Virus record (IMG/VR): IMGVR_UViG_3300003154_000789
Span: 1 to 61,330 of that record
DNA length: 61,330 nucleotides
Source: a virus
Strand: one strand, 5' to 3'
The number at the start of each line of letters is the position of its first letter. Within the stretch, counting starts at the first letter, position 1. The notes under the pieces were generated by a model that worked only from the letters and a program-made list of their open reading frames with translations, was not told the DNA's origin and searched no databases. Shown here piece by piece: positions 34,317 to 61,330 of this stretch. A program made the position numbers and the translations under genes.

Positions 34317-34358
34317 CAGAGTATAACGTAGTATAACACTTAGAGGAGGACTACTAAT

Positions 34359-34577
34359 ATGAAACTGTATATAGTAAAGCTTTCCGAACAAGTATCTTAC
34401 ATTAAAGTAAGAGATATCGCTAATAGAATAGACTCAGATAGTACGATTACTGTAATAGAACATAGTAAAGTATATGAATTCCAAAGTAAAAAGGTAGCAG
34501 ACACGATAGCCAGAGTGTTCAATGGTGTAGTCGAAGCCATTGAATATAACATCAACAACAATTATATGCAGGTATAG
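34359..34577 (+). CDS. hypothetical protein
   Basis: GAGGAGG RBS. Confidence 0.55.
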   Translation: MKLYIVKLSEQVSYIKVRDIANRIDSDSTITVIEHSKVYEFQSKKVADTIARVFNGVVEAIEYNINNNYMQV

Positions 34578-34729
34578 TATATGGGAAAATGGTTTGTCGG
34601 CCCCAAAACAAAGTGTCCATATTGTGGTGAATACAAAGTTCTATATAGTAGAACGGTAAAAGGAAAACTTATAGGACGCTGTAGTCATTGTGAAAATTGG
34701 CTTTATACAATAGCAAAGGAACTATAAAT

Positions 34730-37182: not shown

Positions 37183-37206
37183 CAAATAAGAAAGATGTAT
37201 TATATT
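37179..37206 (+). promoter_or_regulatory. sigma70-type promoter for tmRNA
   Basis: TTGACA-16-TATATT. Confidence 0.7.
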
Positions 37207-37262
37207 AGTATTAACAAGTTATAAATAATAATGTAACTTGTATATAAGTAAGAAACACATTC

Positions 37263-37658
37263 GGGGATGACAGGTTTCGACATGGCGGATGTGACTATAG
37301 GCTCGATGCGTAGACTGTACAATACTACGTTAAAAATTGTATAAAAATAAATAACGAATCTATGTTAAACTATGCTCGTGAACAACTTACCGATGGTATT
37401 AGTGTCGTTAAATCTATGAGCAGATATATGGAAGCTGTCTAATAAACAATTCCATGGGGCTTTGCAGAGGCCTAGCAACAGAATTCTGTAGTTCGTTTTA
37501 AATTTTTAGTTGTGAGTATAAAGTTTCGTAGTTCTTTTTTGCAAAACTACGTGGTGGAAGGCGACGGTTAAAGCCGTTGGCCCCTTGTTGTTAGTATTAT
37601 CATCGTCAACCCTATAGAACCAACGTTGTGGACCCCGGTTCAATTCCGGGCATCTCCA
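37263..37658 (+). ncRNA. ssrA: tmRNA
   Basis: GGGGATG-ACAGGTTTCGAC 5' end, GGAC-CCCGG-TTCAATT-CCGGG-CATCTCC-A 3' end with G3:U; internal tag ORF ending TAATAA. Confidence 0.92.
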
Positions 37659-37671
37659 AGGAGTAGTAAAA

Positions 37672-37742
37672 GGTCTGTTGGTGAAATGGTATCACAGAAG
37701 ACTGTCGATCTTCAATCAGGGGATCAATACCCCTACAGACCG
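37672..37742 (+). tRNA. tRNA-Asp(GTC)
   Basis: GGTCTGT/ACAGACC, GAAGA-CTGTCGA-TCTTC, G73. Confidence 0.85.
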
Positions 37743-37753
37743 CAAGTAAGTAT

Positions 37754-37822
37754 GGGTCACGGACCGGCGTCCAGACGGGCCTCCAAAGCCCATCGTGCGG
37801 GGTTCAACACCTCGGTGACCCG
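37754..37822 (+). tRNA. tRNA-Trp(CCA)
   Basis: GGGTCAC/GTGACCC, GGGC-CTCCAAA-GCCC, short D arm. Confidence 0.75.
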
Positions 37823-37853
37823 CAGGTAGTAAAAATTAAAAGGAGAACTATAA

Positions 37854-38525
37854 ATGAACTTCACAATACTAACCCCTGGTGATTGCCCAGTGATGTATGA
37901 TAAGTCTGATGCCACAGCTTCTAATTTTGGTGGCAGCAGGGCTGTTACAGCTGATATAGTAAAAGAACCACAATTTGATAAGCATTTAGATACAAGTTAT
38001 ATAACAGTTTCTGGCGGGGCAACAGTAAGTGGTGTCATTATTCCAGGTACTGGGTTATATAAAGTTTTTAGCTTTACAGAAGAAAGTTTGCCTGATTACG
38101 CTAAAAATATGTTTATCCAGGAGCGTTATGATACATATAATGCCTTAGTAGCATCTGGCATAGAAAACATGTATATAATACCAGATAGTTTTGATTTTTA
38201 TTTTCCTGGAACAGGTGATTATACCCATCGTTATGGTAACGCCCCATCCATAGAAGAAAATCCAGTAGATACTGCCATCAGAGATATAGATGATATGTCT
38301 AATCTTGAAGAACGTAAGAATGATTTCTCTCAGCAAGAGATAAGAGCAGATGTTCAGAAAGGTAATGAGGGGTTAGGTATTCAGTCTGATCCAGAAAATC
38401 GTCCTCGTATGGATGAAGGAACTGATGCAGTTCAAGTACCGAGTTCAGATTTCCGCGAAGAGATGAAGAAAAATAATAGATGGTCATTTGGTAACTCAGC
38501 ACGTTATGAAGGGGAAATAAGTTAA
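37854..38525 (+). CDS. hypothetical protein
   Basis: AAGGAG RBS. Confidence 0.65.
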   Translation: MNFTILTPGDCPVMYDKSDATASNFGGSRAVTADIVKEPQFDKHLDTSYITVSGGATVSGVIIPGTGLYKVFSFTEESLPDYAKNMFIQERYDTYNALVASGIENMYIIPDSFDFYFPGTGDYTHRYGNAPSIEENPVDTAIRDIDDMSNLEERKNDFSQQEIRADVQKGNEGLGIQSDPENRPRMDEGTDAVQVPSSDFREEMKKNNRWSFGNSARYEGEIS

Positions 38526-38627
38526 TGACGTAGATTTCTGGTTTTACATAGATTAGGGGTCCTCCTTATATTTAGCTTAATTTTATTAATATATAAACAA
38601 TTCAACATAATATAAGGAGAATACAAA

Positions 38628-38930
38628 ATGAGATACACAAAATACCCTATGATGAAAGATGAACTTAAACAATTAGCAAAAGAAATTCGTGAGTGCAAGA
38701 GCGTCCGTAAACAAGATGAAAGAGAAAAATTAAATTTAGAACTGTATCAAGTTCAATATAATATTGATAAACGAAAAGATATATTTAGGCACACACATAT
38801 AGCATACTGCATGCTCAGAGGTAAAACATATGAGCAAATTGAAAATCACTGTAGAGTTCTCCCAAACTTTAACAGGATAAACAAGTTGATGGAAGAGAAT
38901 GAACAAAAAACTATTTGTGCTAGTGCGTAA
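38628..38930 (+). CDS. hypothetical phage protein
   Basis: RHTHIAYCMLRGKTYEQIE. Confidence 0.65.
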   Translation: MRYTKYPMMKDELKQLAKEIRECKSVRKQDEREKLNLELYQVQYNIDKRKDIFRHTHIAYCMLRGKTYEQIENHCRVLPNFNRINKLMEENEQKTICASA

Positions 38931-39195
38931 AAATTTGTCAAGAAGTCAGCAAGCAGTTCAAGCGGGTCACGCAGTAGCAGAATATCTGCTCCGTGGCCCG
39001 TTTACGTTTTGGGAGAACGGAACTCTTGTTTACTTAGAAGTAAAAGATGAGATAGTCCTTAGACAATGGGAGACATAGATTTCTTCCGCGGGCTATAAGA
39101 CAGTACCTTTCTATGAACCAGATAGAAATAATGAGATGACAGCATTTGCTTCAGAAGGTTGCGATGATCTTGTAAGAGAATTAAAATTACTTTAA
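38899..39195 (+). CDS. Pth2-like protein with in-frame TAG at 39076-39078 (readthrough candidate or pseudogene)
   Basis: LFVLVRKNLS..QAVQAGHAVAE before the TAG; FYEPD.NNEMTAFA...LKLL after it, same frame. Confidence 0.7.
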
Positions 39196-39208
39196 GAGGT
39201 GAGGTGTC

Positions 39209-39400
39209 ATGTATGATGAAGAAGACTTAAAGGATTGCATAGACTTAGACTTAGAATGGTTAAAAAAAGAACTTGAGGACTTGACAATAGAGGAAAGATG
39301 TCTTATATTGGATGAGTACATAGAGCGGACACAGAAATATGGTGTAGGTATACTGGAATATAAGGCTTTTGTTGAAGCATTTGATAAATTGGAGGATTAA
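39209..39400 (+). CDS. acidic hypothetical protein
   Basis: GAGGTG RBS. Confidence 0.5.
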   Translation: MYDEEDLKDCIDLDLEWLKKELEDLTIEERCLILDEYIERTQKYGVGILEYKAFVEAFDKLED

Positions 39401-39405
39401 AAGGA

Positions 39406-39762
39406 ATGTCATATAATATAACGAGTTGGAAGACTAAGGAAATATCTAATTTACTAATACCATTAAAAGTTATAGCAGATCTACCTTATACGTATATTGA
39501 AGTTGATGGTGCAAGTGTGAGTGCCAAAGGACTTTCTGAAGGTTTCAAACTTGAAGGAAATTTAATAGATAACAATATTGTAGAAGTAACCAAAATAAAA
39601 ACTTCTGATGATGGTAGTGGTTCAACTTGGCAAGATTTTATTAATATGCTTAAAGAAAGTAGAGGTATACTTGTTGCTATTCAAATTTGGGAGGGCGGAG
39701 ATAGCCTTTCTAAACTTATAGTAAATAATGGTGAAGTAATTGATGAGCCATATGAGTTGTAG
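39406..39762 (+). CDS. hypothetical protein
   Basis: WEGGDS motif, RBS. Confidence 0.6.
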   Translation: MSYNITSWKTKEISNLLIPLKVIADLPYTYIEVDGASVSAKGLSEGFKLEGNLIDNNIVEVTKIKTSDDGSGSTWQDFINMLKESRGILVAIQIWEGGDSLSKLIVNNGEVIDEPYEL

Positions 39763-39773
39763 GGAGAATAGTA

Positions 39774-39953
39774 ATGGAAATAGAAAAGGCAAGAGATAGA
39801 ATCCAGGCTATAGAAAAAAACATAACAGATCTTATCCGTGATTTCGAAAAGGAATATGATATGTGCATCAATAGAGTAGGTCTTGAACGTACTTATGCAT
39901 TGGGGGATAGGTTTGGGTATTTATGTCGGGTCAACTTTGATATTAGGTTGTAG
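39774..39953 (+). CDS. 59-aa hypothetical protein, paralog of next ORF
   Basis: GGGAG RBS; ends VNFDIRL. Confidence 0.55.
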   Translation: MEIEKARDRIQAIEKNITDLIRDFEKEYDMCINRVGLERTYALGDRFGYLCRVNFDIRL

Positions 39954-39963
39954 GAGAATAGGA

Positions 39964-40143
39964 ATGGATATATTAGAAATGCAGAAGAAAAAGGCGGTAG
40001 TGGAACATGCAATAGATGAACTTCTAAATACTTTTGAAGAAGAAACTAATATGAGAGTATACGATATAGATTTCGATCGAGGGATAGAGATGACACAGCG
40101 TGGTAGTTTTATTTTTAATGTTAATTTGGATATAAGATTATGA
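39964..40143 (+). CDS. 59-aa hypothetical protein
   Basis: AGGAG RBS; ends VNLDIRL. Confidence 0.55.
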   Translation: MDILEMQKKKAVVEHAIDELLNTFEEETNMRVYDIDFDRGIEMTQRGSFIFNVNLDIRL

Positions 40144-40751
40144 TAGATCCTTCAAATATAACTAACTATAATTTGACAGAAGATGAATTAGAGGAGCACA
40201 TACTTTTCTGGGTAGCAGCTGCTGGAAAGAATGGTAGAACTGCAGCAAGACGCCTTGAAGTATTTCTTACTATGATTACCTATAATGGTATGAGCCCTTT
40301 TGATGCTTTAAAAAATCAATATCTATATGATGTTAAAGAAAAAGGTGACCCTACTCATGCTACTATGTCTGAACTTATGAAGCTGGCAGGGATAGGTTGT
40401 TATACTAATAAGAGTAAAACCTTTACTGAATTATCTCATGCACCTATAGATTTAAGTACATGCTCCACTGAAGAATTAGAAAAGATATATGGTATTGGAC
40501 CAAAGACTGCTAGATGTTTTATCCTTCACTCACGTAAAGGTGCAAGACTATCTGGTCTTGATACACATATGCTTAAACATTTAAGGGAAATGGGAGTAGA
40601 AGGTGTTCCTAAGTCTACGCCTTCTTCCAAAAAGAAATATATGATATTGGAACAAGAAGTTTTAAGGTTAGCAGACGAGGCAGGAATGAGCCCCGCTGAT
40701 TATGATTTAAAAATTTGGAACAAATACTCGACAAAAGTTCTTGACAAATAG
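40140..40751 (+). CDS. HhH-GPD superfamily DNA glycosylase-like protein
   Basis: IYGIGPKTARCF HhH, LDTH, YDLKIW. Confidence 0.7.
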   Translation: MIDPSNITNYNLTEDELEEHILFWVAAAGKNGRTAARRLEVFLTMITYNGMSPFDALKNQYLYDVKEKGDPTHATMSELMKLAGIGCYTNKSKTFTELSHAPIDLSTCSTEELEKIYGIGPKTARCFILHSRKGARLSGLDTHMLKHLREMGVEGVPKSTPSSKKKYMILEQEVLRLADEAGMSPADYDLKIWNKYSTKVLDK

Positions 40752-40768
40752 AAGTTATGTATTATCTT
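40741..40768 (+). promoter_or_regulatory. sigma70-type promoter
   Basis: TTGACA-16-TATCTT. Confidence 0.7.
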
Positions 40769-40821
40769 ATATATAAGTAAGGGAAAGGCAAATTTCAATA
40801 ACAGTACAAGGAGAATGTAAT

Positions 40822-41550
40822 ATGCAAGAAAAAATGATTAGTATTAATGACAAAGGAAGAAAAACCAATCGTAGTTCTTTAGCATTCTATAACAAACAAA
40901 AAGAATTGCTAACTGTATCTGCTTTAAAAACTCCAATCGAACAGCTAGTGGCTACATATGGTTATGATGTTGTAGCTAACGTGCTGAGCACATTTAAAAA
41001 GTTTCCATATAGAAATAGTCAATGGTTTGACCAAGATAAATATCCTTCAGGTAAATCTTTTAGTGAAGCCTATGTAAAATTTATGAGAGAGGAAGTGTTC
41101 ACCGATCTCATTGAACATAAAGGTTCCACATCATACGATGACGATTTATCAAAAATTAGAATAGAACAGAAAGCTATACGAGCTCTTGGACCCAAAGCGT
41201 TAGGTTCCTTCTCTGATAGAGCACAGATTAAAGCTGAGTTTAAAAATACTTCTAGGACTTGGCAGCAGGTTAAACCAGATCTTTTTGATATGCTTTTAGG
41301 AGCCGTTGTTTATCTTGATCGTACAGACTATTATCTTATTCACAGATCTGATATGTGTTTGACCATACATGATGATTCTCCCAATAAAGTTAAACTTGGA
41401 AAACAACATGCTAAGGGAGAAAGTTGGGGACAAGTTAATCCCTTCAGACCATTAACAGAATCTTTTCTATTTGCTACATCAACTGAAACAGAGCCTTTGG
41501 AAAATGTGAAATTACTTGACTTTCTAAATAAACTCAATGTTGGAATTTAA
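40822..41550 (+). CDS. hypothetical protein, possible restriction endonuclease
   Basis: YDD...IEQKA (PD-(D/E)XK-like); coupled to methyltransferase. Confidence 0.4.
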   Translation: MQEKMISINDKGRKTNRSSLAFYNKQKELLTVSALKTPIEQLVATYGYDVVANVLSTFKKFPYRNSQWFDQDKYPSGKSFSEAYVKFMREEVFTDLIEHKGSTSYDDDLSKIRIEQKAIRALGPKALGSFSDRAQIKAEFKNTSRTWQQVKPDLFDMLLGAVVYLDRTDYYLIHRSDMCLTIHDDSPNKVKLGKQHAKGESWGQVNPFRPLTESFLFATSTETEPLENVKLLDFLNKLNVGI

Positions 41551-42982
41551 GAATATACAAGAAAGAAAAGAGGTTTTGGGCCAGTTTTTCACTCCTGAAG
41601 AACTGGCTTTAAAACTTATAGAAAATTTAGACATCACCACTGATCTAATAATTGAACCTTCATTCGGTTCGGGTAATTTTTTGACAGCTTTGAGTTCAAA
41701 ATTTTCTATAGAAAAGATTATAGGTATAGAATTGGATGAATTCTATTATGATTTGGTTAAAAATAATGAGAAATTCAACAACATGAAGTTGCTAAATGAA
41801 AATTTTTATGACTTCTCTATCTGTGATTTTTCAAAATCTATAACTTTTGTAGGGAATCCTCCCTTTAGAACACCAGCATGGTCCTTAAAAACACATAATA
41901 AATATGTTAAAATGTTATGTAAAAAATATGACATTCATGGTATAAGGGAGGAGGCAATATTTTTTATAGTTAAGACCTGTGATATTCTAATTGAAAATGA
42001 TATACCTGGTTATATATATTATATAGTACCATCTACCATTATCAAAAATAATACCAAATTTTATAAGTCGTTCATGAAGTTTTTAATAAAATACTTCTTT
42101 ATTTCCATAAGTACTATTGAGAAGAATCAATTCGACAACGTGTCCCAAGATTTAATATTCTTACAGTTGGAAAAGAAACAAGATTTAAAAAAGATACAAG
42201 AATATATAATGGTAGATACAGAAAAGATAGATCTAAAAGAATATATATTTGGAAAGGATGACCTTATACCACATCAAGAAATTTTCAAGAGATCATACTT
42301 AGGTTCAGTTCCTTGTGAGAGTATATTTATATCTATTTCTGGTGAGCCTATAGAACATTTCAGACAGCGTCTTATAAAACTTTTTTATTGTAATATTAAA
42401 AACAATGAGGAACTATTATCATTATTATCTTTTGATGGAAAACGCTATCTTAAAGTTTTGGGGTCTGGTTCAGAAGCAAATGTGGATTCAAAATTAGACA
42501 TAATAACAAATTATATAAATGAAATTAAACGAAGAATAGATCTTAATATTTTTAGCGATAGTAATAATTATAAACCTATAAGACATAGAAAGGAAGATAG
42601 GTATTACTTTAGACATAGAGATCTTAAGGGTTTAAGTTTTGTTTATGAGTTAAACCCAAATCCAGGACAGTCTTTTTATTTTACTGGTAATCCATCACAT
42701 TCATCCACAGATTACTTTGGATATTGTTCTTATGATGTGACACGAAATTCTAGTCCAGGGGCGTGTAGAACAATTCCTTTAGAGGACTTGGAGGAGAATT
42801 TAGTAGAGGAATTTAAGGTTTATTGGAACGAAAATACTAATGGATTAGATTATAAATACATCTTTGATTATATAATTTTTATATCTAAAACACAGTGGTA
42901 TAGAGATATCAAGAAAGAAAAAAGACGTATGTATTTTTCTCTTCCAAAGAAGTTTAATAGATTATTTCTTGAGAGTACTTGA
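41537..42982 (+). CDS. N6-adenine DNA methyltransferase
   Basis: LGQFFTP, IEPSFGSGNF, GIELD, GNPPF. Confidence 0.85.
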   Translation: MLEFKNIQERKEVLGQFFTPEELALKLIENLDITTDLIIEPSFGSGNFLTALSSKFSIEKIIGIELDEFYYDLVKNNEKFNNMKLLNENFYDFSICDFSKSITFVGNPPFRTPAWSLKTHNKYVKMLCKKYDIHGIREEAIFFIVKTCDILIENDIPGYIYYIVPSTIIKNNTKFYKSFMKFLIKYFFISISTIEKNQFDNVSQDLIFLQLEKKQDLKKIQEYIMVDTEKIDLKEYIFGKDDLIPHQEIFKRSYLGSVPCESIFISISGEPIEHFRQRLIKLFYCNIKNNEELLSLLSFDGKRYLKVLGSGSEANVDSKLDIITNYINEIKRRIDLNIFSDSNNYKPIRHRKEDRYYFRHRDLKGLSFVYELNPNPGQSFYFTGNPSHSSTDYFGYCSYDVTRNSSPGACRTIPLEDLEENLVEEFKVYWNENTNGLDYKYIFDYIIFISKTQWYRDIKKEKRRMYFSLPKKFNRLFLEST

Positions 42983-43006
42983 CAAATAGTAGTTATGCAT
43001 TATATT
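42979..43006 (+). promoter_or_regulatory. sigma70-type promoter for suppressor tRNA
   Basis: TTGACA-16-TATATT. Confidence 0.7.
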
Positions 43007-43027
43007 ATATGTATGAAAAACGGATAT

Positions 43028-43103
43028 GGCTCAGTAGCTAAGTTGGCGTAGCGGATGCCTCTAAAACATTGAAACATGGGTTCGAGTCCCATCTGAGCCA
43101 CCA
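43028..43103 (+). tRNA. Amber suppressor tRNA (CTA)
   Basis: Canonical register GGCTCAG-TA-GCTA..TAGC-G-GATGC-CTCTAAA-ACATT-GAAAC-ATGGG-TTCGAGT-CCCAT-CTGAGCC-A-CCA. Confidence 0.82.
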
Positions 43104-48443: not shown

Positions 48444-48926
48444 ATGAAATTTAAAGTACTTATTATATTATTGTTATTTTTATTGCTGCCTATATCTCTC
48501 TTTGCTGCTAATGAAATTAGAATAGAAGCTAAGCCTACAAAGGAAATGAAAGAATTAAGTATAGATTGTAATACGTTAAATTTATCTACTCTAAGAATAT
48601 TTCTAACTAGAAAAACTATACCAACTAAAGTTTACTTCTATTCTGCAATTTATTACAATGATATACTTGGAACAGCTTACTACATTGCTAGAACAGATAT
48701 TCTAAATAGATATGTATTTATATCATATGGTCCTGGAGAGCCCATAAGATCCCAGTTCTATGGTATGGGTTTTATTATTCTATTAAATTATTGGGAAGAC
48801 ACTGCATTCTATGATGTTTTCAAACATAAAACTTGTGCGGAATTAAAACAATATCATTTTATCTATGGTTTTTCTAGCAAAACTGACATGAGTGATTTCG
48901 AAGGAGCCGAATTCTATTTTAAATAA
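48444..48926 (+). CDS. putative secreted protein
   Basis: Signal peptide MKFKVLIILLLFLLLPISLFA. Confidence 0.55.
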   Translation: MKFKVLIILLLFLLLPISLFAANEIRIEAKPTKEMKELSIDCNTLNLSTLRIFLTRKTIPTKVYFYSAIYYNDILGTAYYIARTDILNRYVFISYGPGEPIRSQFYGMGFIILLNYWEDTAFYDVFKHKTCAELKQYHFIYGFSSKTDMSDFEGAEFYFK

Positions 48927-48940
48927 TATTCTAACTTCTA

Positions 48941-49120
48941 TTTCCCAGAAATTTCAAGGGTAAATTTGGAAGGGCGGTTCCGTAAGCAGCAGCAGCAGCT
49001 AAAAGTTTAAGTTTAAAATAAAAAAATATTGGTTTCCCATAAACTCCAAGGGTAAATTTAGGAAGCCGGTTCCGTAGACGAAAAAAACACCTAAAAGTTT
49101 TTAAAAAAATAAACAAAATA
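48941..49120. repeat. Imperfect tandem direct repeat (92-bp period) near the transcription convergence zone
   Basis: TTTCCCA..CAAGGGTAAATTT..GGAAG..CGGTTCCGTA..CTAAAAGTTT occurs at 48941 and 49033. Confidence 0.7.
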
Positions 49121-49542
49121 ACATATAATAAAGATACAGATACGGAAAAAGAAAACAAAAGGATACCGATAGTCTATAGAATATAGTGTAGAAGCCGCGT
49201 ATAGAATACCGGGATTATAAAAAGAATAGAAAGGGAAATACTATGAAGGAAAAAATAGGAAGGATTAGATTTAGTGGTAGGGGTTTCTTCTCTAGTATCA
49301 ATATCTTTACTACGCGATTTGCTATGATTGATGCTATAGAAGTTTATGGACTTGGTGGGGATGGATTGAGAGGAAAGAATAATAGAAGAGAAGACGATAT
49401 AAGGGATTCGCTCCAAGCTCCTCCCTTATATCAGGAGGAAAAATTATGAAACAATTAAAGCACAGGAGTAAAAGGAGTCAATTCTTTCCCCTGGTGAAAC
49501 ACTGCATGCATGGTGACGACATACATGCAGATAAAACAATCG

Positions 49543-50430
49543 TTATACTGTAGGATTATGTACCCACAGAAGCATAGCACGCTTTATATTTACTGGATTT
49601 GTACGTTTAAATTTAGTAGCTTCATAACGCTGAATTACCGGATGTTTAGTCGAACCAGTATATACACCACTTAAGTAGTCAATAAGAATATTGTCCACCA
49701 CGTTATACGCCTTTATATAATCGCCCATTTCAGCCGTCCAATTAGGCAGCAGCTGATCGATATCACTGTTGGTAATACCCAAACCATCGGTAGGCACGGC
49801 ATTTGCACATCTCAGTACGGGTTGTCCAATGACGTCTGCCATACCAAATACTTCAGTTTTCCAAAGCTCCTGAATTAATCCAAGATCCCCCACATCTCCA
49901 TGGAGAGTCCAAAATCCAAGATAGTATTCTGTAAGGTTATCTGTTGATAGAACAAGTCCTTTCTGCTCTTGGGCTTTATTATACAAGAAGATCATTCGAG
50001 TACGAGCTTTTATATTACCCATTCGAATCTTTTCTTCATGAGTCAACATCTTCCCATCAATACCTTGGATATACTTTTCATACAGAAGTGAGTCAACACC
50101 TCTAAGAATACCAAGAAAGGTTTCAGCCAGATTTACTTCCGCAAATTCATCACAGTATGTCCTACCAACAATATCTGCTCTCTCTATCTCCTCCTTTTTG
50201 TTGCTTAAGATCTTTAAGCTGTATCCAGAAAGTGTTATCTCCCGACCTTCCTTTTTCAAACCGTCACAAATTTTTCTGGCAAGGGCGGCTATAACAGCAC
50301 TATCTACCCCGCCAGAAATACCAAGAACAAGTGTTTTAATATTCGAGTTGTCTCGCAAGTATGAAATACCTGCATTGACAGCTCCACTTACCATGAATTT
50401 ATACTCTGAAGAAATCTTTGAAGATTCCAT
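49543..50430 (-). CDS. nadE: NH3-dependent NAD+ synthetase
   Basis: GISGGVDSAV, GNIKARTRM, TDNLTE..LGFWTLHGD, PTDGL. Confidence 0.9.
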   Translation of the reverse strand: MESSKISSEYKFMVSGAVNAGISYLRDNSNIKTLVLGISGGVDSAVIAALARKICDGLKKEGREITLSGYSLKILSNKKEEIERADIVGRTYCDEFAEVNLAETFLGILRGVDSLLYEKYIQGIDGKMLTHEEKIRMGNIKARTRMIFLYNKAQEQKGLVLSTDNLTEYYLGFWTLHGDVGDLGLIQELWKTEVFGMADVIGQPVLRCANAVPTDGLGITNSDIDQLLPNWTAEMGDYIKAYNVVDNILIDYLSGVYTGSTKHPVIQRYEATKFKRTNPVNIKRAMLLWVHNPTV

Positions 50431-50440
50431 AACATTCTCC

Positions 50441-51079
50441 CTATTTATACAGTTCATGTTCTACAATGTATTCATGAATGGCAACTAATAATCCCTTTGG
50501 TTTATTCTTCTTTTGGTGTTCCCAATTGTTGTGATAGTCTTCCCGAATCTTTGATGAAGCATTCTGTCCACCATTTTCTCCCAATATGAACACATTTGTG
50601 GTTTGTTCAATCCAAATATGTGAATTTGAAAAACACCAGTCATGGGGTCCATGAATGAATCCTGGTCTTTTAACAACCACAAAAGGTATTGTCTTCAAAA
50701 GATTTCTACTATTTCTCCATTCTCTAATCCTACTAGCTTGATCAGAGCCTATCACATAATAAAATTCTCTATCAGGATGTCTTCGTATAAGTTCTATTAT
50801 AACGGCATAGGCTCCAGCTTCATTTGCCATTTCTATTTCAGTTGTGCATATACTGGAGCATGGACCTAAATAGTTCACCACATATTTAAGCATGGCTATT
50901 CTGTGTTCTGGGCTGGTGAGTTTCTTTTGGCCAAAAGCATCTGAATAACAAGGAAGGAACCATAATTCTGCTGGACAGTTGGAAAATCTTTTGTGTCCTA
51001 ACACAGTGGCTGCTGTATTTATATGACTTTTATGTGGTGGATCAAATGCTCCGCCGAATAATAGAGTTTTTATCTTCAT
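50441..51079 (-). CDS. nadD: Nicotinate-nucleotide adenylyltransferase
   Basis: FGGAFDPPHKSH, HRIAML, IGSD, W, RPG, SSKIR. Confidence 0.88.
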   Translation of the reverse strand: MKIKTLLFGGAFDPPHKSHINTAATVLGHKRFSNCPAELWFLPCYSDAFGQKKLTSPEHRIAMLKYVVNYLGPCSSICTTEIEMANEAGAYAVIIELIRRHPDREFYYVIGSDQASRIREWRNSRNLLKTIPFVVVKRPGFIHGPHDWCFSNSHIWIEQTTNVFILGENGGQNASSKIREDYHNNWEHQKKNKPKGLLVAIHEYIVEHELYK

Positions 51080-51080
51080 C

Positions 51081-52274
51081 TTACCCCGCTATCTTTTCTT
51101 TAACAACTTTAATCAGGTAGTCTAAAAATTCTGGGTCCTCACACATACCCTTCCCTGCACTATCACTTATCTTTGCTACAGGTCTACCATTACACTCTAT
51201 CGGTTTCATAACTACCTGTGGGGCTTCAAATCCACAATCATTGGTAAGATAAGTACCTATACCGAAGGATACATTTATCTCATTGTGAAAACGTCTGAAG
51301 AGATCTAAAGCAACCTCAAAAGTAATGCCATCGCTGAATATGGCAGCTTTGGTACGTGGATCAATCCTTAATTTCTTGTAATGGGCAATCAATTTTTCAG
51401 CCCACCAAATCGGGTCCCCAGAGTCATGGCGACAACCATCAAATAGTAGAGCAAAGTAGCGATCAAAGTCTTTTAGGAAAGCATCAAAGCCTATTGTATC
51501 AGACAGGGCAATTCCCAATTCTCCACGGTATTCATTTGTCCAAGCTTGAAGTGCTGCTGACTGACTATCAGCCAAACGAGGACCGAGCTGTTGATGAACT
51601 TGGAAAAGCTGATGAGCCATGGTTCCTATAGGTTTGACACCATATTTTTTAGCAAACATAACATTGCTGGTGCCAACAAAATATTTACCATAATTTTCCA
51701 CAATGAAGCCGATCAGTTCATCTTGCCACTCTACATCAGCACGACGTCTTGTACCGAATTCTGCGAACTTGAATGCCTGGTCCTTATGAAGACTTGCATC
51801 TAGCATGGTAAACTTATCCTTGAGCCTTTTACGGGCTTCAGGAAGCCATATGATCTTGGATGTGGAATTTTCGGTGTAGAGTTGGCTTACAATCGAAAGA
51901 ATTGGCTCTTCAAATGGTATAGTTGTGAGCCATGGTCCATCAACTTCAATAACTAGTACCCCGTTCACATTGCGGATTTTGATGTAAGCCCTATTCAATT
52001 GAAACAATCTGAGATATTCAATAAAATCTCGTTTTAAATAGGGAATGCTGGATAGATACTTGAGTTCGTCTTCAGTGAATCTTAAAGTGCATAGATGATC
52101 CACTTCTTTCTTTACTCGACCTACAAAATCATCCATGGAAATACGAAGCTTCATTCTATCCCAGTTTCTCCATTTGAATGCATAGCGAACCCATGCACCT
52201 GAACACTGATGAAGGGCAAGCTGCATCATTGAGAAGGTATAAAAATCACTGTCTGTTAGACTATTTATAATCAT
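51081..52274 (-). CDS. pncB: Nicotinate phosphoribosyltransferase
   Basis: DSDFY..SM, EFGTRR, GTSNV, GTMAH, RHDSGDP, FSDG, FGIGT, KISD..GK. Confidence 0.93.
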   Translation of the reverse strand: MIINSLTDSDFYTFSMMQLALHQCSGAWVRYAFKWRNWDRMKLRISMDDFVGRVKKEVDHLCTLRFTEDELKYLSSIPYLKRDFIEYLRLFQLNRAYIKIRNVNGVLVIEVDGPWLTTIPFEEPILSIVSQLYTENSTSKIIWLPEARKRLKDKFTMLDASLHKDQAFKFAEFGTRRRADVEWQDELIGFIVENYGKYFVGTSNVMFAKKYGVKPIGTMAHQLFQVHQQLGPRLADSQSAALQAWTNEYRGELGIALSDTIGFDAFLKDFDRYFALLFDGCRHDSGDPIWWAEKLIAHYKKLRIDPRTKAAIFSDGITFEVALDLFRRFHNEINVSFGIGTYLTNDCGFEAPQVVMKPIECNGRPVAKISDSAGKGMCEDPEFLDYLIKVVKEKIAG

Positions 52275-52276
52275 AG

Positions 52277-52429
52277 CTATCCTTTCACTTTTAGACTGTC
52301 TCGTAATCGTTCTTCAATATACTTGGTATTGTTTACATACACTTGCTGGTCTTCTGCATTTGTTTCCATACCTTGTATTATCTTACGGACGACTAGGTCA
52401 GCCTTATCTTTTTCGGTTTTTTGTTTCAT
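52277..52429 (-). CDS. small hypothetical protein
   Basis: MKQKTEK... with AAGGA RBS. Confidence 0.4.
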   Translation of the reverse strand: MKQKTEKDKADLVVRKIIQGMETNAEDQQVYVNNTKYIEERLRDSLKVKG

Positions 52430-52445
52430 ACTCGATGGTCCTTCT

Positions 52446-52748
52446 TTAAGATCCATCGGCTGTACATGACTTCCCGCAGATGGAACATTTACCAGTCTCT
52501 TCCTCACTATCATTTTCAATGACATAAGCCTTTTTCTTTTCACGAAGTTCTTTTCTTGTACTGGCAAACCACGGTACACGAGATACGATTATGGCTGAAT
52601 CACCAAAGTGTTCACATGATTCAATCGTGAACATCTTTGTACTGATTGCCGAGCAACGTGGACAGAAGTCGTAATGTTCTTTAAACCTCACAACTTGTTC
52701 ATGACCACAAAAATAACATGCTTTATCTACGATTCCGAATTCTTCCAT
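52446..52748 (-). CDS. Zn-finger hypothetical protein
   Basis: CYFC, CPRC, CSIC; GAGGAG RBS. Confidence 0.55.
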   Translation of the reverse strand: MEEFGIVDKACYFCGHEQVVRFKEHYDFCPRCSAISTKMFTIESCEHFGDSAIIVSRVPWFASTRKELREKKKAYVIENDSEEETGKCSICGKSCTADGS

Positions 52749-52773
52749 GACAACTCCTCGATTTTAAAAATAG

Positions 52774-53106
52774 TAGGTGGTGTGCTGTTACGCCAAATGC
52801 CTGTCTTCTACCGCAAGATTCTCACCCCCACCACACATATAACCAATCTTGCAAAACGCAATGTGTAGCCGTGCTTCTCAAAGCACGCTTGGGCACGACG
52901 GAAGATTTCTTATCCGCCGAGGCAGTGCATATACGGAGACAGGTTTGTCGCACCCATAGTGTCGATACGTACAACTGCCGTCTCCTTAAATGTCATCTTT
53001 TGCAATGATGGCGGGCAACTCATTATAGGTACCGAATATTTGTTATTGGCGTAACATTGTATTCGGCAGGGCGAACCTGGCTGCTTCTAAGCCAACCTCC
53101 CACCTA
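52774..53106 (-). ncRNA. Structured RNA mimicking the 23S rRNA L11-binding domain (H42-H44) with insertions
   Basis: UAGGUGG-GA-GGUUGGCUUAGAAGCAGCCA ... CCUAUAAUGAG ... GGCGUAACAGCAC-A-CCACCUA. Confidence 0.75.
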
Positions 53107-53157
53107 TCTTAATTGAATTTCAGTCGTCTATTATGGCGACGATGACCAAGTTAAAGG

Positions 53158-53694
53158 TTAAATAATTTCAGTGCCATAAAGAGCGGACATCCTTTTAATG
53201 GCCATATTGTCCATTTCCTGATCGAAATCGGCGACACAATTCTGATGAATCACTGTTGGATAATCACGATTGGCTAGATCTCCAACTGTATCCATTACAC
53301 AGATACTTGTGCATACTCCAGCTACCTCAATCACAGAGTTTCCTGGCTTCAGCCCGAAGTGTACTTGAAGAGTGAATTCCAGTGAGGTATTGTAGAAACC
53401 ACTGTATCTGGTTTTTGTGACAATGGCATCCGTTCCTTGTGTAAAATTCAACTCATCGATAATTCTTGCTCCATATGTATTAATGACACAATGTTTTGGA
53501 AAACGTTTAAACTCAAGATCATCTTCTGTATGGGCATCAGACAAGAAGATAACTGGATAACCATTTGCACGATATTCTTCAATTCTTGCTTTAACAAAAG
53601 GCACAATTGCCTGAGCCGTAGGGCCACAAAATAATGCCCCATCCTGTTTGATAAAATCGTTTAACATATCAACTACGAGTAAAGCCTTTTTCAT
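53158..53694 (-). CDS. pncA: Nicotinamidase (isochorismatase family)
   Basis: VVDMLNDF..GAL, DAH, FPKHC, KTRYSGF, GVCTSICV; located in NAD gene block. Confidence 0.82.
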   Translation of the reverse strand: MKKALLVVDMLNDFIKQDGALFCGPTAQAIVPFVKARIEEYRANGYPVIFLSDAHTEDDLEFKRFPKHCVINTYGARIIDELNFTQGTDAIVTKTRYSGFYNTSLEFTLQVHFGLKPGNSVIEVAGVCTSICVMDTVGDLANRDYPTVIHQNCVADFDQEMDNMAIKRMSALYGTEII

Positions 53695-53698
53695 TCTT

Positions 53699-53908
53699 TC
53701 ACTTCTCTGATTCAGATCTAGCTCTTATCTCCTGCCAATACATACATTCAAAGTGTCGATCATTGATTGATATATTTTTTTCTATAATTCTTTCAGCGAT
53801 CAAACACATTTCTTTTGGTTTAGTATCAACATGACATTCAGTTATACCATACCATGGAATAGAAGCATGACAACCAAATCTTTTTTTGTTCGAATAGTTA
53901 TCACTCAT
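53699..53908 (-). CDS. hypothetical protein
   Basis: Small coupled ORF. Confidence 0.4.
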   Translation of the reverse strand: MSDNYSNKKRFGCHASIPWYGITECHVDTKPKEMCLIAERIIEKNISINDRHFECMYWQEIRARSESEK

Positions 53909-54112
53909 TTATTATTCCTTTATTTTTATAGAACTTTTGCCGGACTTCTGCCTCTGTCAGACAGCATGTCCGGCGACAAAACATTTTCCCCACCCCCATC
54001 CCACTCGACCTCTGCTCGATTGGGGCATGTTCAATAGATTCTATATGGAGTTTATATTCGTGTTGCCAATACGTATATAAATTGTCCAAATAGAAATCTT
54101 TTAAACATTCCC

Positions 54113-54427
54113 TCACAAAGCTGGTGTTGCGAATGAAAAATTTCGGAGGATACGAAGCGTAACCGCGGTATCAAACCTACTCTCCTTCATGTTGCGTTCA
54201 TAAAGTCCAATTTCAACGAGTTGTATATAACCAATAGGAAAATGGAACCACTCACATATTGCGGGTCGATACGCCGCTAGTGAAATAGAATCCATAATTA
54301 AATCTTGGATATAATACTTCCCTCCCTCGAAAATTATGTTCGCCTTTACACGCAATGCACGTGAAAAATATATATGTTTTATGGTACTACATTCTATTAA
54401 TTTAAATTTAACATATATCAAAGCCAT
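54113..54427 (-). CDS. hypothetical protein
   Basis: ORF only. Confidence 0.35.
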   Translation of the reverse strand: MALIYVKFKLIECSTIKHIYFSRALRVKANIIFEGGKYYIQDLIMDSISLAAYRPAICEWFHFPIGYIQLVEIGLYERNMKESRFDTAVTLRILRNFSFATPAL

Positions 54428-54506
54428 GCATCACGCTTACAACATTTTTTAATTTAATCTCATCTAATAAATAATAAATAATTGTAAAACTGTACTTCTT
54501 AACTAA

Positions 54507-55271
54507 TTAACTAATAAGTTTATTTATCTCACCGACTGGCAAAGATTTCAATTTTGCCATGGCATCAAAATAAATACCCTTACTCAACTCTGAAAATCCT
54601 GGAGATGAATTGATCTCTATGAAATAGATTTTCATACTGTTATCCACAATTAAATCCACCGCACCAAAAGACATTCCCATAACTTTAAGAATCTTTTCTG
54701 AAATATCTTTTGCATCAGTGAATACTTTGTGGCTATTGGGCGATTGTACGCTTTGAAAGTGCCCTCCCTGATGAAAATTCCAAGCTATTTGGTCGGAGGG
54801 ACCCACACGTTTATGAACAGCCCAATCTTTTTTAGATATCCAGGAAAATGCATGAACACGAAGTTCATATTTCCTTTCTTTTACCATCTTCTGATAATAC
54901 TTTCCAACAATTTTGCCACGCCCCCTTGCGGCGATGATTCCATTACCCTGACTTGAGTGTACTCTTTTTTCAATCCAATCAGAAAGTTTAGCTGTTTCAG
55001 GGAGGGATAACCTCGTTTCAGGTACAGTTATCCCTTTATTTTCTGCATCTTTTACAGAGGAATACTTAGAACGACCAACATGACCATTGATCATAGGTAC
55101 TTTTATTGCTGGCGGGTATTTTCTGAAAAATAAATCAAGTCTTTCGCCACTTACCCCGTAGTTTATAATGGCATCAGCTTTTTGTCCAACATATCTGCGT
55201 ATACCAACATTGTTTATGATTTCTCTACAGGATTTGGATGCCCTATTTCCAATGATACATATGTTAGTCAT
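54507..55271 (-). CDS. ATP-grasp (RimK-like) ligase
   Basis: QGNGI, YQK, ELRVH, FGAVD, IEINSSPG. Confidence 0.75.
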   Translation of the reverse strand: MTNICIIGNRASKSCREIINNVGIRRYVGQKADAIINYGVSGERLDLFFRKYPPAIKVPMINGHVGRSKYSSVKDAENKGITVPETRLSLPETAKLSDWIEKRVHSSQGNGIIAARGRGKIVGKYYQKMVKERKYELRVHAFSWISKKDWAVHKRVGPSDQIAWNFHQGGHFQSVQSPNSHKVFTDAKDISEKILKVMGMSFGAVDLIVDNSMKIYFIEINSSPGFSELSKGIYFDAMAKLKSLPVGEINKLIS

Positions 55272-55284
55272 AGTTGAATACTCC

Positions 55285-55671
55285 CTAGTCCTCAAACAAC
55301 GGTCTACGTCCTTTACAGATATCATCTATGTACTGTTCGAAAGGACGCAGTCTTCTTTTCTCTCCATGTCGTGATTGTAATGAGGAAAGTTTCATAACTT
55401 GTTCCCAATTCTTCTTATCGGTATCCTCATCTATATCAACTCCTAGATCCAGATCAATCTCACGATCAAACTCTTCGTGGAGCTCCTCTGCCAAAGCGAA
55501 AGCGAGACCCATTTCTTCTGGCCCCATTTTGTCAAATAAATCCCGATCTTGCTCTCTCCTGTTTGTATCAATAATCTGGTCATAGGTGTCATACAGATAA
55601 TCTTCTCCACCCATTCTCCCATCATCAATACCTTCGTAACCTTCATGACTACAGTGGTCAATACCAAACAT
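55285..55671 (-). CDS. acidic hypothetical protein
   Basis: Intact ORF in operon orientation. Confidence 0.55.
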   Translation of the reverse strand: MFGIDHCSHEGYEGIDDGRMGGEDYLYDTYDQIIDTNRREQDRDLFDKMGPEEMGLAFALAEELHEEFDREIDLDLGVDIDEDTDKKNWEQVMKLSSLQSRHGEKRRLRPFEQYIDDICKGRRPLFED

Positions 55672-55686: not shown

Positions 55687-56226
55687 TTATAAATTTCTAC
55701 TTAGTCTCAAGAATATTAACATTTTAACGATTCTGTCCACCAAATATTTTTGCGTCTCATCCATTTCACGGTCAAGATTTTCTATGATATACTGAGTCTC
55801 TTTGATGTAGCGGTCAACAAAATGGGTTGGAATACAAATTTCCTGCAATCCTACGATATTGCTTAGACGATCACAAAGTTTTATTAGAAAAGCCTTATCT
55901 GACATAGCATTGATTTTTCTTGATAGATAAACAGCTTTTCCATAAATGGCTATTTGGGAGTCATCATTTGTTACTTCTCCTACCAGTCCCATAACTATCC
56001 CGCCAAATTTTTTTCCTAGTTCGTCCAAGGTTGTGGAAGTATTTTCAACCACATCATGACAAAGAGCAGCGATGTACTCATCATCAGAAGCTTTCCCATC
56101 TGTAGCCTCCCATAATAGCTGTGCCGTTTCTTCTAAATGAATTAGATAAGGTTTGTTGGTGAACTTTCGCTTCTCATCATGATGACGATCTGCAACAAAG
56201 TTATGTGCTACCATCAACCTATTCAT
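55687..56226 (-). CDS. HD-domain protein, SpoT/Mesh1 hydrolase-like
   Basis: H..RK..PYLIH, AALCHDVVEN, IKLCDRLSN. Confidence 0.8.
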   Translation of the reverse strand: MNRLMVAHNFVADRHHDEKRKFTNKPYLIHLEETAQLLWEATDGKASDDEYIAALCHDVVENTSTTLDELGKKFGGIVMGLVGEVTNDDSQIAIYGKAVYLSRKINAMSDKAFLIKLCDRLSNIVGLQEICIPTHFVDRYIKETQYIIENLDREMDETQKYLVDRIVKMLIFLRLSRNL

Positions 56227-57585: not shown

Positions 57586-57856
57586 ATCCTCTCCTTAAAA
57601 TATTACTTGTGTTTAACCACCCCGGTAAACAATCAAATCTAAACTTGATTTCTTACCTATGGGGTGGTTAAACGTGCCCGCCCCGTCCCCACACGCTCTA
57701 AAGTTCCTCTTTACTTCTATCAATTTCAACATTATACAATGAATGGACCCCGACTCTAAAAATTTTCGATACGTATATCTAATCATGTTAGAGTACTTTC
57801 GTCGATTATAGTAGTATACTGTTGACTATGATGCATTTGAAGTATAAAGAAACTTG

Positions 57857-57940
57857 TGGGGAGTGATGGAGTCGAACCACCCGAGCCGTTTAGACGCATG
57901 GTCTACAGCCATGCCCGCTACCCCTACGGTATAACTCCCC
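57857..57940 (-). tRNA. tRNA-Tyr(GTA)
   Basis: GGGGAGT/ACTCCCC, CATGG-CTGTAGA-CCATG, long V arm. Confidence 0.92.
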
Positions 57941-57947: not shown

Positions 57948-58223
57948 TTAAATCTTTTTACCAGTACAACAACCACAACAACCGTGAATTCCTTCTGAGT
58001 CATCCATACCATGTCTCCTTCTGAATGCCATATCATCTGGATCAGGATGTCCAATTCCACAAGGACAGATACGCTCCATTATACCACGGTCATCTCTCCA
58101 ATGTGTAGGCCAGTCTTTCATTTTATGATTAGAAGGATTGTGTATGCTGCAGTATTCACCAGCACAATCTTTTCTATCATGTACTTTCAACTTTACTCCT
58201 GTACCATCCACGTAGGTTTCCAT
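57948..58223 (-). CDS. Cys/His-rich phage protein
   Basis: CSIHNPS.H, MERICPCGIGHPDPD, HGCCGCC. Confidence 0.6.
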   Translation of the reverse strand: METYVDGTGVKLKVHDRKDCAGEYCSIHNPSNHKMKDWPTHWRDDRGIMERICPCGIGHPDPDDMAFRRRHGMDDSEGIHGCCGCCTGKKI

Positions 58224-58873
58224 AATTTGTTTGGTATCACCTCCTTATGCATCCAATGTCTATCTGTCTGTACATGATTAGCTCTTACATATTTCGCCAC
58301 CGACCTTCCAAAATTCTCATATTTGAACTCGGAGACAAGCCTTACCACATAACCCTCGTGCTTATCTCCATATTTTTCATGATACATATCATCTATTTCT
58401 TTTAAAGATGTTACTGGTGATGATATAGCATCAAGATTGATAACTTCTGGGGTATATATGTGCATGAAGTCGAGAGCATCCATTGTATCTTCCCAACTCA
58501 AACATAGATTGTCACCAAACTCTGTTGTCCATACAGAGAACGCTAAGAAGTAAGACATCAAATCGTCGTATGCTATGGAGTGTTTTGCATACAAATTTTC
58601 CCCGCAAATCCTCCATTCAGGAAATATCAAATCTTTTATGCTGGCATGAAATGCTTTCATCCAGTGCCTAGACGCATGGTCTTTTGAATCAATTGATCTA
58701 GCATGCATATGATCATGATATAAAGTAGTATTCTCACCATCCATTTTTACCATGGCAATAAGAGGCTCTCCCTCTAAATGACTTGTATCTGTGAGAACTC
58801 TATCATCTTTTGTTCTTCCCGGAGACCATGGTAAATGTGGTGTTCTTGGATATTTATATCTTCTTTCTATCAT
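58193..58873 (-). CDS. RNA ligase family nucleotidyltransferase
   Basis: KYPRTPHL, KMDGEN (motif I), GENLYA, EGYVVR, KYVR. Confidence 0.82.
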   Translation of the reverse strand: MIERRYKYPRTPHLPWSPGRTKDDRVLTDTSHLEGEPLIAMVKMDGENTTLYHDHMHARSIDSKDHASRHWMKAFHASIKDLIFPEWRICGENLYAKHSIAYDDLMSYFLAFSVWTTEFGDNLCLSWEDTMDALDFMHIYTPEVINLDAISSPVTSLKEIDDMYHEKYGDKHEGYVVRLVSEFKYENFGRSVAKYVRANHVQTDRHWMHKEVIPNKLWKPTWMVQE

Positions 58874-60056: not shown

Positions 60057-61330
60057 TTATTGTTGCTGGAATTGATCTGCTGTGTCAATCATTCGTTTTG
60101 CGAATTTCAATATGCTTCCAGACCACCCACCGATAATATACGTCCTGTCATAATATTCAGGGAGCAGAGTGTCTTCATACCCAGCGATCTGCACAAGAAA
60201 CACGTTAACTTTGGAGTTAACTTTGGAACGATACTCATTAAGGAGTAGAGGTACATCGATATAACTTCTACCTCTCCCTTGCCAGATGTACTGCTTATAA
60301 TCGGCAGCATTTTTACCATAGAGTCCACCATGCCCTGCCTGCATGTCGGAGTAGATAAACATGTTATCCCAATGCTCTTTGTTTCGAATGGCTTTGTCAA
60401 GTGCTAACCACACACCATTTTCAGTGCCTTCCCCGATATGTGTCCCTTTTTCGTTGGCTTCGGATGTCTGATCCATAATTGAAGCCTTCTTTCGAATAGG
60501 CATACAATCCAGGCGGTCACCAAAAATTCCCAGGACTCCTTCATCAGAAATACGTCCTGTAAGAACCCCCATCAGATTTCCAATCTGAGCTACTGTCATA
60601 GAGCTCAATTCTGAAATAGGAGTACCATGTGCAGAACCAGAGTTATCAGTAAGTACCAGTGATCTCCCATTTAATGTGGGCAAGTTACCTACAGAAATCT
60701 CAAGGCATTCTTCGATAGCATCTTGAACAAAACCAGGGGCACCTTTATTCGCATTGTGTGCGGATAGATAACGAAATGGAAGTTGTCTTCCTTTCGCAGC
60801 AGTGGCTACGAGTTTCTTTAGCCACAGTTCAGGAGGAACTTTAGCCTCCAACAAATTTCGAATGTTGCGGAGAAGAGCCATATGCCCCATGACTTCTACT
60901 GCCTCTTCCCACGAGCCGCCACCGGAACGGATTGATTCCCAGGTCCTGATGTCCTCTCCCAATTTCAGCTCTCCTCGCATGAGTTTACCAATTGGTGAGT
61001 CATAGCCATAGAAACCCTTACCCATTGCCAGATTGGCGACATCAACAGTCTTAACAACACGATCTTCCATTCTGTATTTCGCCAGTTGATAATCATTGGC
61101 TGTGGACAGAATGTCTTTCCAAGCACGCCTCATGGCGTTTGGAACTGGCTTACCGAAAGCTGACAGTTGATAGGCGAGTTGAACTGCCGGTTCATCCATA
61201 CGCCCTGTAATCAAAGCTGCATACTTACGTGTCAAGCCAGTACCGCGGACCTTAGGATGATTAGCCGCACGAATCAGTATTACTTGAGGAGTTGTTCTAA
61301 TGTTCTCCTCGTTACGTAATGTAGCCGCCC
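60057..61330 (-). CDS. Ro60/TROVE-vWA RNA-binding protein (5' end outside window)
   Basis: YQLAKY, TWE, HMALLRNIRN, QLPFRY, vWA MIDAS DNSGS, SDMQ, GGWS; frame open to window edge. Confidence 0.9.
   Translation of the reverse strand, partial: AATLRNEENIRTTPQVILIRAANHPKVRGTGLTRKYAALITGRMDEPAVQLAYQLSAFGKPVPNAMRRAWKDILSTANDYQLAKYRMEDRVVKTVDVANLAMGKGFYGYDSPIGKLMRGELKLGEDIRTWESIRSGGGSWEEAVEVMGHMALLRNIRNLLEAKVPPELWLKKLVATAAKGRQLPFRYLSAHNANKGAPGFVQDAIEECLEISVGNLPTLNGRSLVLTDNSGSAHGTPISELSSMTVAQIGNLMGVLTGRISDEGVLGIFGDRLDCMPIRKKASIMDQTSEANEKGTHIGEGTENGVWLALDKAIRNKEHWDNMFIYSDMQAGHGGLYGKNAADYKQYIWQGRGRSYIDVPLLLNEYRSKVNSKVNVFLVQIAGYEDTLLPEYYDRTYIIGGWSGSILKFAKRMIDTADQFQQQ

Follow-up and report, generated by a model that had tools for sequence, protein, structure and literature searches.

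A probable deamidating NAD+ salvage module on a large phage contig

Why would a large phage carry its own genes for making nicotinamide adenine dinucleotide (NAD+) from nicotinamide? The question is raised by four genes, pncA, pncB, nadD and nadE, located between positions 49543 and 53694 of the window, by which we mean the whole stretch of DNA analysed here, positions 1 to 61,330 of the IMG/VR virus record IMGVR_UViG_3300003154_000789. This stretch makes up the first 61 kb of a contig of 141,526 bp with a CheckV completeness of 54%. Bacteria commonly fight phages by depleting NAD+, and experiments have established three routes by which phages rebuild it. We consider it probable that the four genes constitute a working deamidating salvage I module (the Preiss-Handler pathway together with a nicotinamidase) of a jumbo phage, and the most likely consequence of carrying it is a boost of the NAD+ resynthesis flux during infection. 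A benefit to the phage, through the supply of NAD+ in general or through protection from NAD+-depleting defences, and co-transcription of the genes are what we infer beyond this.

All four genes lie on the minus strand, and in the list of open reading frames (ORFs) their transcription order is also the order of the pathway steps. The pncA product (53158-53694, 178 amino acids, aa) is a predicted nicotinamidase, which would hydrolyse nicotinamide to nicotinate and ammonia. The pncB product (51081-52274, 397 aa), a predicted nicotinate phosphoribosyltransferase, would join nicotinate to host-made phosphoribosyl pyrophosphate (PRPP), giving nicotinate mononucleotide (NaMN). A NadD-like nicotinate-mononucleotide adenylyltransferase (50441-51079, 212 aa) would then use ATP to adenylate NaMN to nicotinate adenine dinucleotide (NaAD), from which NadE (49543-50457, 304 aa), a single-domain NAD+ synthetase, would form NAD+ with ammonia and ATP. 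None of the four genes contains an in-frame stop. The last three are physically clustered, together spanning 49543-52274: only one base lies between the stop of pncB and the start of nadD, and nadD shares its last 17 nt with nadE. Should nadE begin at M10 instead (50430, 295 aa), where a GGGAG ribosome-binding site lies ahead and where the ESM Atlas record of the protein begins, the overlap becomes a gap of 10 nt. Because these genes abut or overlap, pncB, nadD and nadE probably share one transcript. The original prediction had described four co-oriented genes in pathway order with the last three nearly abutting, which is the arrangement that we find.

The gene identities rest on family matches, solved homologues and intact catalytic motifs. 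PncA matches the Isochorismatase family (Pfam ID PF00857) at 1.6e-36 and aligns over its full length to the PDB structures 5zn8 and 6a8l (1.1e-23) and to the solved nicotinamidases 3o90, 1ilw and 3s2s. Its Asp-Lys-Cys triad (D9/K94/C128) and the metal ligands D53/H55/H68 of the D-x-H...H type are present and aligned to those of the solved nicotinamidases, and these residues are kept in 15 to 17 of the 17 phage homologues that adjoin pncB. PncB is a type I enzyme with both Pfam domains, NAPRTase and NAPRTase_N, scoring 491 bits against NF003704 (cut-off 379) and 416 bits against TIGR01514 (cut-off 270). It matches Pseudomonas PncB2 (PDB ID 1yir) at 4e-111 over residues 2-390 and retains the GTMAH motif, and H221, presumably the counterpart of the autophosphorylated histidine in Salmonella PncB, is invariant in the four phage PncB proteins that were aligned.

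NadD is a HIGH-type nucleotidyltransferase (CTP_transf_like, Pfam ID PF01467, 6.5e-14) whose translation contains the motifs GGAFDPPHKSH and SSKIR, of the PPHxxH and SSxIR types. Its best PDB matches are the Bacillus and Staphylococcus NadD structures 3hfj, 2qtr, 1kam and 2h29, at about 1e-17, and its Atlas model superposes on Bacillota NadD with a TM score of 0.80. NadE matches the NAD_synthase family (Pfam ID PF02540) at 1.5e-30 and TIGR00552 with 113 bits (cut-off 64), carries the SGGVDS P-loop in its ATP-pyrophosphatase domain and resembles NH3-dependent NAD synthetases in the PDB (6e-15). The Pfam search found no CN_hydrolase (glutaminase) domain in this protein, and since it is a single domain without glutaminase, we assign it to the predicted NH3 type. 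Family scores, solved homologues and conserved motifs back the sequence of conversions that had been proposed for the locus, from nicotinamide through nicotinate, NaMN and NaAD to NAD+; the activities and substrate preferences of PncA, PncB, NadD and NadE are predicted from them.

If the module is expressed in infection, the cell could turn more of the breakdown product of NAD+ back into the cofactor, and phage replication would not be limited by it. The second step needs PRPP. As already pointed out in the original prediction, no PRPP synthetase is encoded in the window; searching for its N-terminal domain (Pribosyltran_N) also found none in the whole contig, about half of the genome, and none in 41 of 43 pncB-carrying viral records, a result that supports dependence of the module on host PRPP. 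Among possible phage consumers of NAD+, neither LigA nor Tpt1 nor SIR2 was found in the contig, again about half of the genome, so no phage NAD+ consumer was found there that would explain a self-supply role; a Macro match at positions 111342-111479 of the contig is sub-threshold.

The DNA around the module is that of a phage. Genes in the window encode a baseplate wedge protein, a clamp loader, a DNA polymerase, a ribonucleotide reductase, an ATP-dependent DNA ligase, a Lon-like protease and an RNA ligase, and the minus-strand block goes on past the window with genes for a TROVE/Ro protein, a Nudix hydrolase, a CCA-adding enzyme, a sigma-like factor and RuvB. The GC content of the four NAD genes, overall and at third codon positions (GC3), lies within 0.7 standard deviations of that of the genome's ORFs. 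Independent contigs of 312,947, 247,044 and 113,241 bp encode proteins that are 96-100% identical to PncA, PncB and NadD, and blastn against GenBank phages returned short matches alone, at 66-78% identity. Jointly with our reading of the four genes, and with the same good confidence, we take the carrier to be a jumbo phage, with a genome of some 250-310 kb, in which the module is long-standing. The window also encodes 22 tRNA genes and a transfer-messenger RNA (24821-43103 and 57856-57940), including a tRNA with the amber-reading anticodon CTA, labelled tRNA-Pyl by ARAGORN, at 43028-43103.

The four proteins differ in their nearest relatives. For PncA, phage-lineage matches come first, followed by proteins of Desulfosarcina and Desulfobacteraceae at 54-59% identity. 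The nearest relatives of PncB are metagenomic proteins at 64-81% identity, located on contigs of 313, 264, 100 and 64 kb, and after these come Desulfobacterales PncB proteins at 62-65%. In a FastTree phylogeny the window PncB groups with about 35 metagenomic proteins; a stand-alone Desulfobacterales clade is its neighbour, and most IMG/VR phage PncB proteins fall elsewhere. The join to the Desulfobacterales clade is weakly supported and the sampling is biased to close matches. A phylogeny against host genes had been proposed for this locus; with so weak a join and such sampling we claim no donor. NadD gave 45 matches at an E value of at most 1e-10, every one of them metagenomic, and shares 26-28% identity with the NadD of Desulfobacterales. 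NadE is 31-34% identical to Desulfobacterales NadE compared with 46-47% to the NadE of two phage contigs, L002 and L003, described below; it has 224 representative clusters at an E value of at most 1e-30, and in the Atlas clusters closest to it 75-100% of the members are viral. The module therefore looks like a mosaic, apparently combining host-like PncA and PncB with virus-lineage NadD and NadE. The searches with PncA, PncB and NadD often returned matches whose longest contigs are of identical size (e.g., 247044, 113241, 9702, 63572, 14276 and 5294), suggesting that pncA, pncB and nadD travel together in this lineage.

The gene set recurs in many large phages, as a survey of phage genomes, suggested in the original prediction, made clear. 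An alignment-based scan of IMG/VR yielded 44 viral contigs with PncB relatives at 39-54% identity to the window PncB, and whole-record family searches covered 43 of them, nine being at least 90% complete. An NAD synthase is encoded in 31 of the 43 records and accompanies pncB in all nine near-complete genomes. Isochorismatase-family proteins were found in 23 records (six of the nine near-complete ones), CTP_transf_like proteins in 17 (seven of nine) and the PRPP synthetase N-domain in two (none of nine). The gene order varies among the related contigs (prefix L). L002 (235.8 kb, 98% complete) and L003 have pncB-Nudix-nadD-nadE-pncA on one strand, with RtcB one gene further on; L046 (158 kb, with terminal repeats) has pncB-nadE-pncA-nadD-Nudix; L079 has pncB, Nudix, nadE and pncA, with nadD not detected; and lower-GC JGI metagenome contigs have pncA-pncB-nadE, pncB-pncA-nadE or pncB-nadD-nadE. 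Two cultured jumbo phages hold the same five families. In Sinorhizobium phage Phosso (PV764938.1), a stretch of 6 kb contains nadE, pncB, Nudix, adenylyltransferase and isochorismatase-family hydrolase genes. The genome of Agrobacterium phage Atu_ph07 (MF403008.1) encodes PncB, a trio of adjacent Nudix, adenylyltransferase and isochorismatase genes and, elsewhere, an NAD synthase. Among the relatives, L004 (723-2606), L013, L033, L037 and L042 encode a long glutamine-dependent NadE (CN_hydrolase plus NAD_synthase, in ORFs of 630-1010 aa) and not the short NH3 type.

A Nudix gene is thus a repeated companion of the NAD genes. It lies inside the cluster in L002, L003, L079, L046, L027 and Phosso, and in Atu_ph07 it adjoins the adenylyltransferase and isochorismatase genes. 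The contig analysed here has one Nudix gene (63472-63942 of the contig, minus strand), about 10 kb from pncA, whose product is 45% identical to the Nudix protein inside the L002 cluster. Its best named matches, all under their cut-offs, are the Nudix halves of bifunctional NadM-Nudix enzymes and the ADP-ribose-responsive repressor NrtR. Because the protein is short (156 aa) and its Nudix box is intact, it is more likely to be a hydrolase than a repressor. Were it an ADP-ribose pyrophosphatase, it could turn the second product of NADases into ribose-5-phosphate, the precursor of the PRPP used by PncB.

Several observations weigh against a working module of the kind proposed. The match of NadD to TIGR00482 reaches 95.8 bits over residues 7-211, under the equivalog cut-off of 112, and NadE belongs to a divergent, virus-dominated subfamily with the low identity to Desulfobacterales NadE given above. 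The likely host group, Desulfobacterales, has all four enzymes, so that the phage copy duplicates a host pathway and fills no gap. Promoter and terminator scans gave no excess of sites over shuffled sequence, leaving the operon boundaries unproven, and pncA is set off from pncB by 883 nt carrying other features, which leaves co-regulation unproven as well. The unusual NadD and NadE could also work in the order known as Francisella-type, in which NadE would act as a nicotinamide mononucleotide (NMN) synthetase, converting NaMN to NMN, and the NadD-like enzyme would then adenylate NMN to NAD+. Such an order fits the distance of NadE from canonical NadE, with virus-dominated nearest clusters, its match at 9e-14 to PDB ID 3fiu, which is among its better matches and which we take to be the Francisella NadE, and the sub-cut-off score of NadD, some of whose nearest Atlas clusters are labelled NMNAT. 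However, the best PDB matches of NadD are the NaMN-preferring Bacillus-type enzymes and NadE exceeds the TIGR00552 cut-off, which makes the Francisella-type order improbable in our judgement. A further departure would be an isochorismatase-family gene that is not a nicotinamidase, leaving the phage with the three-step nicotinate route of Li et al. alone. The NCBIfam matches of this protein are all far under their cut-offs, with RutB and biuret amidohydrolase on top, and PHROG 19305, to which it belongs, has no assigned function. We rejected this candidate, giving it a slimmer chance than the Francisella-type order, on the conserved triad and nicotinamidase-type metal site, on the full-length matches to solved nicotinamidases and on its adjacency to pncB in many viral contigs, where it also shares same-sized contigs with the PncB relatives. 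Finally, the whole block might be bacterial host DNA joined to the phage by misassembly, an outcome that the original prediction named among its refutations, and the 54-65% identity of PncA and PncB to Desulfobacterales proteins could be read in this way. Against it, the contig is single and strand-coherent with phage genes flanking the block on both sides, the GC of the NAD genes (0.37-0.40) is typical of the genome and lower than that of the Desulfobacterales loci (0.43-0.51), the Desulfobacterales pncB is solitary, without adjoining pncA, nadD or nadE, and NadD and NadE are just 26-34% identical to those of the host. Given the flanking phage genes, the typical GC and the near-identical proteins encoded by two other contigs, of 247 and 313 kb, misassembled host DNA is very unlikely indeed, the least credible of the readings weighed here.

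If the four genes are a phage salvage module, the remaining question is what it is for. Beyond a general supply of NAD+, it might be a dedicated counter-defence, a fourth NAD+ reconstitution pathway (NARP) that rebuilds the NAD+ cleaved by NADase effectors such as SIR2, TIR, DSR, RES and others. In such a system PncA would take up the released nicotinamide, and the Nudix protein would split ADP-ribose into AMP and ribose-5-phosphate, from which the host Prs would make PRPP for PncB. The route does begin at nicotinamide, an NADase product, and the gene for this first step is kept in six of the nine near-complete pncB-carrying viral genomes; the Nudix gene travels with the cluster in L002 and L003, where the protein is 45% identical, is clustered also in L079, L046, L027 and Phosso and lies near in Atu_ph07, and its resemblance to NadM-Nudix halves and the ADP-ribose-responsive NrtR agrees with a substrate of this kind. 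NARP2, which likewise starts from nicotinamide and PRPP, counters such defences (10.1101/2024.02.11.579819), and the same logic has been proposed for jumbo phages (Iyer et al. 2021, PMC7824862). On the other hand, our literature search found no paper reporting this role for this route. With four steps and a cost of about 3 ATP plus PRPP per NAD+, the route may be too slow against fast NADases, and the host's own copy of the pathway evidently fails to save cells from such defences. In this genome the Nudix gene is 10 kb away and its product is a predicted enzyme, and the module has no neighbouring gene for defence sensing or for another anti-defence function. A counter-defence role is plausible on this analysis, and we regard it as a tentative reading with somewhat less than even prospects. 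The fuller proposal, that PncA, PncB, NadD and NadE together with the travelling Nudix protein form a true fourth NAD+ reconstitution system, recycling both NADase products with virus-specific NadD and NadE and host-derived PncA and PncB, is one we think rather unlikely. A search of the literature for a NARP4 or for a relevant phage nicotinamidase experiment found neither.

Preiss-Handler clusters of phages are already known. The original prediction had presented the locus as a new third route, a claim that does not hold, since Li et al. 2024 (Microbiome 12:268, PMC11662467) described "NAD-jumbo phages" with a clustered pncB-nadD-nadE forming a complete Preiss-Handler pathway, for example in Kuafu_71, and the name NARP3 is taken by the PnuC/NadR route (PMC13464706, 2026). 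Their study, which is wholly bioinformatic and covers gut, sediment and deep-subsurface samples, also mentions a phage pncA. The module described here resembles theirs in being carried by a large phage with clustered pncB-nadD-nadE and a complete nicotinate-to-NAD+ route, as far as the likeness to Kuafu_71 can be judged by description. It differs in having pncA upstream in pathway order and in the relatives of its PncA and PncB, which point to Desulfobacterales and not to Bacteroidota; its PncB is just 39-54% identical to the sampled IMG/VR phage PncB proteins. Phages of this kind have genomes of >200 kb; the contig here is 141.5 kb at 54% completeness, and the 96-100% identical proteins are found on contigs of 247,044 and 312,947 bp. 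The window adds one example to the known clusters, in a phage with Desulfobacterales-like PncA and PncB. Among related reports, Iyer et al. 2021 (PMC7824862) discussed the synthesis of NAD+ by jumbo phages as a way to meet host NADase effectors, describing the amidated route alone, and pncA, pncB and nadE are listed among the auxiliary genes of CPR/DPANN viruses (PMC12647753). Expression of the host operon pncA-pncB1-nadE is raised by the jumbo phage PA5oct (PMC7318152).

That operon, Pseudomonas aeruginosa PA4918-4920 under NrtR (PMC7318152), stands for the bacterial salvage I operons, which share with the phage module the enzymes, the chemistry, the clustering of pncA, pncB and nadE, and an associated Nudix-family protein from the NrtR/NadM clade. 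Here, in contrast, the genes are virus-borne, the Nudix protein of 156 aa has no DNA-binding domain, and NadD and NadE belong to virus-dominated subfamilies. Of the experimentally established phage systems, NARP2 (Nampt plus Nmnat, Vibrio phage KVP40; Osterman et al. 2024; Lee et al. 2017) is alike in being phage-encoded, in leading from nicotinamide and host PRPP to NAD+ and in needing no phage PRPP synthetase. It uses two amidated steps via NMN as opposed to the four deamidated ones proposed here via nicotinate, NaMN and NaAD, and a Nampt-family enzyme, whereas the sole NAPRTase-family gene of the contig is of the PncB type. The defeat of NADase defences by NARP2 was shown experimentally, while the window module is known from its genes alone. 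NARP1 (Adps plus Namat) and NARP3 (PnuC plus NadR) are also phage-encoded systems for NAD+ restoration. The former converts ADP-ribose to ADP-ribose pyrophosphate (ADPR-PP) via a Prs-like enzyme and the latter imports nicotinamide riboside, both without deamidated intermediates, unlike the route proposed for the window. Marker enzymes of NARP1 and NARP2 were not found in the contig, about half of the genome, with no Pribosyltran_N match and no NAPRTase-family gene other than pncB.

The 883 nt between pncA and pncB contain three features on the minus strand. The stretch next to pncA (52760-53157), about 400 nt long, free of ORFs and not counted by us as part of the pathway, is possibly a structured RNA, with a minimum free energy of -121.7 kcal/mol and a z score of -2.4 against shuffled sequences. 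An Rfam search at an E value of at most 1 across 48900-54600 gave no match, the NAD+ riboswitch included. It is followed by a 100-aa ORF (52446-52748) with two CxxC pairs, zinc-ribbon-like and preceded by a GAGGAG ribosome-binding site. This ORF has a weak match, below the cut-off, to the Pfam family Zn_Tnp_IS91 and none in NCBIfam or PHROG. A putative 50-aa ORF (52277-52429), read from the sequence alone, ends 2 nt ahead of the pncB start codon. In L003 the PncB (6001-7368) is extended at its C terminus by about 50 aa containing two CxxC pairs, an addition absent from the other PncB proteins; in the window there is instead a separate CxxC ORF directly upstream of pncB.

Other genes near the module deserve mention. 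A 179-aa HD_4 protein (55687-56226, minus strand), encoded 2 kb upstream of pncA, resembles the RelA/SpoT hydrolase domain (TIGR00691, 3.9e-14) and is a candidate small alarmone hydrolase; its homologue in L002 is located directly upstream of pncB. Between it and pncA lies a gene for a RimK-like ATP-grasp ligase of 272 aa (54507-55325, minus strand), which PHROG names a ribosomal protein S6 glutaminyl transferase. Beside the NAD genes there is also an RNA-repair neighbourhood (58193-58873 and 60057-61330, both on the minus strand, continuing to contig position 61724), containing an RNA ligase, a 555-aa TROVE/Ro60 protein, the Nudix gene, a class II aldolase-like protein and a CCA-adding enzyme. 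An RtcB gene adjoins the NAD cluster in the relatives L002, L003, L006, L044 and L079.

Many large phages carry genes for the deamidated four-step route, which is known from gene inventories alone. To these the present locus adds modestly, through the mosaic origin of its enzymes, the travelling Nudix gene and the recognition of cultured phages with the same gene set. Phosso and Atu_ph07 are systems in which the counter-defence idea is testable. If the module does rescue phages from NADase defences, it would represent a fourth counter-strategy, and this might explain why phages keep NadD and NadE lineages of their own.

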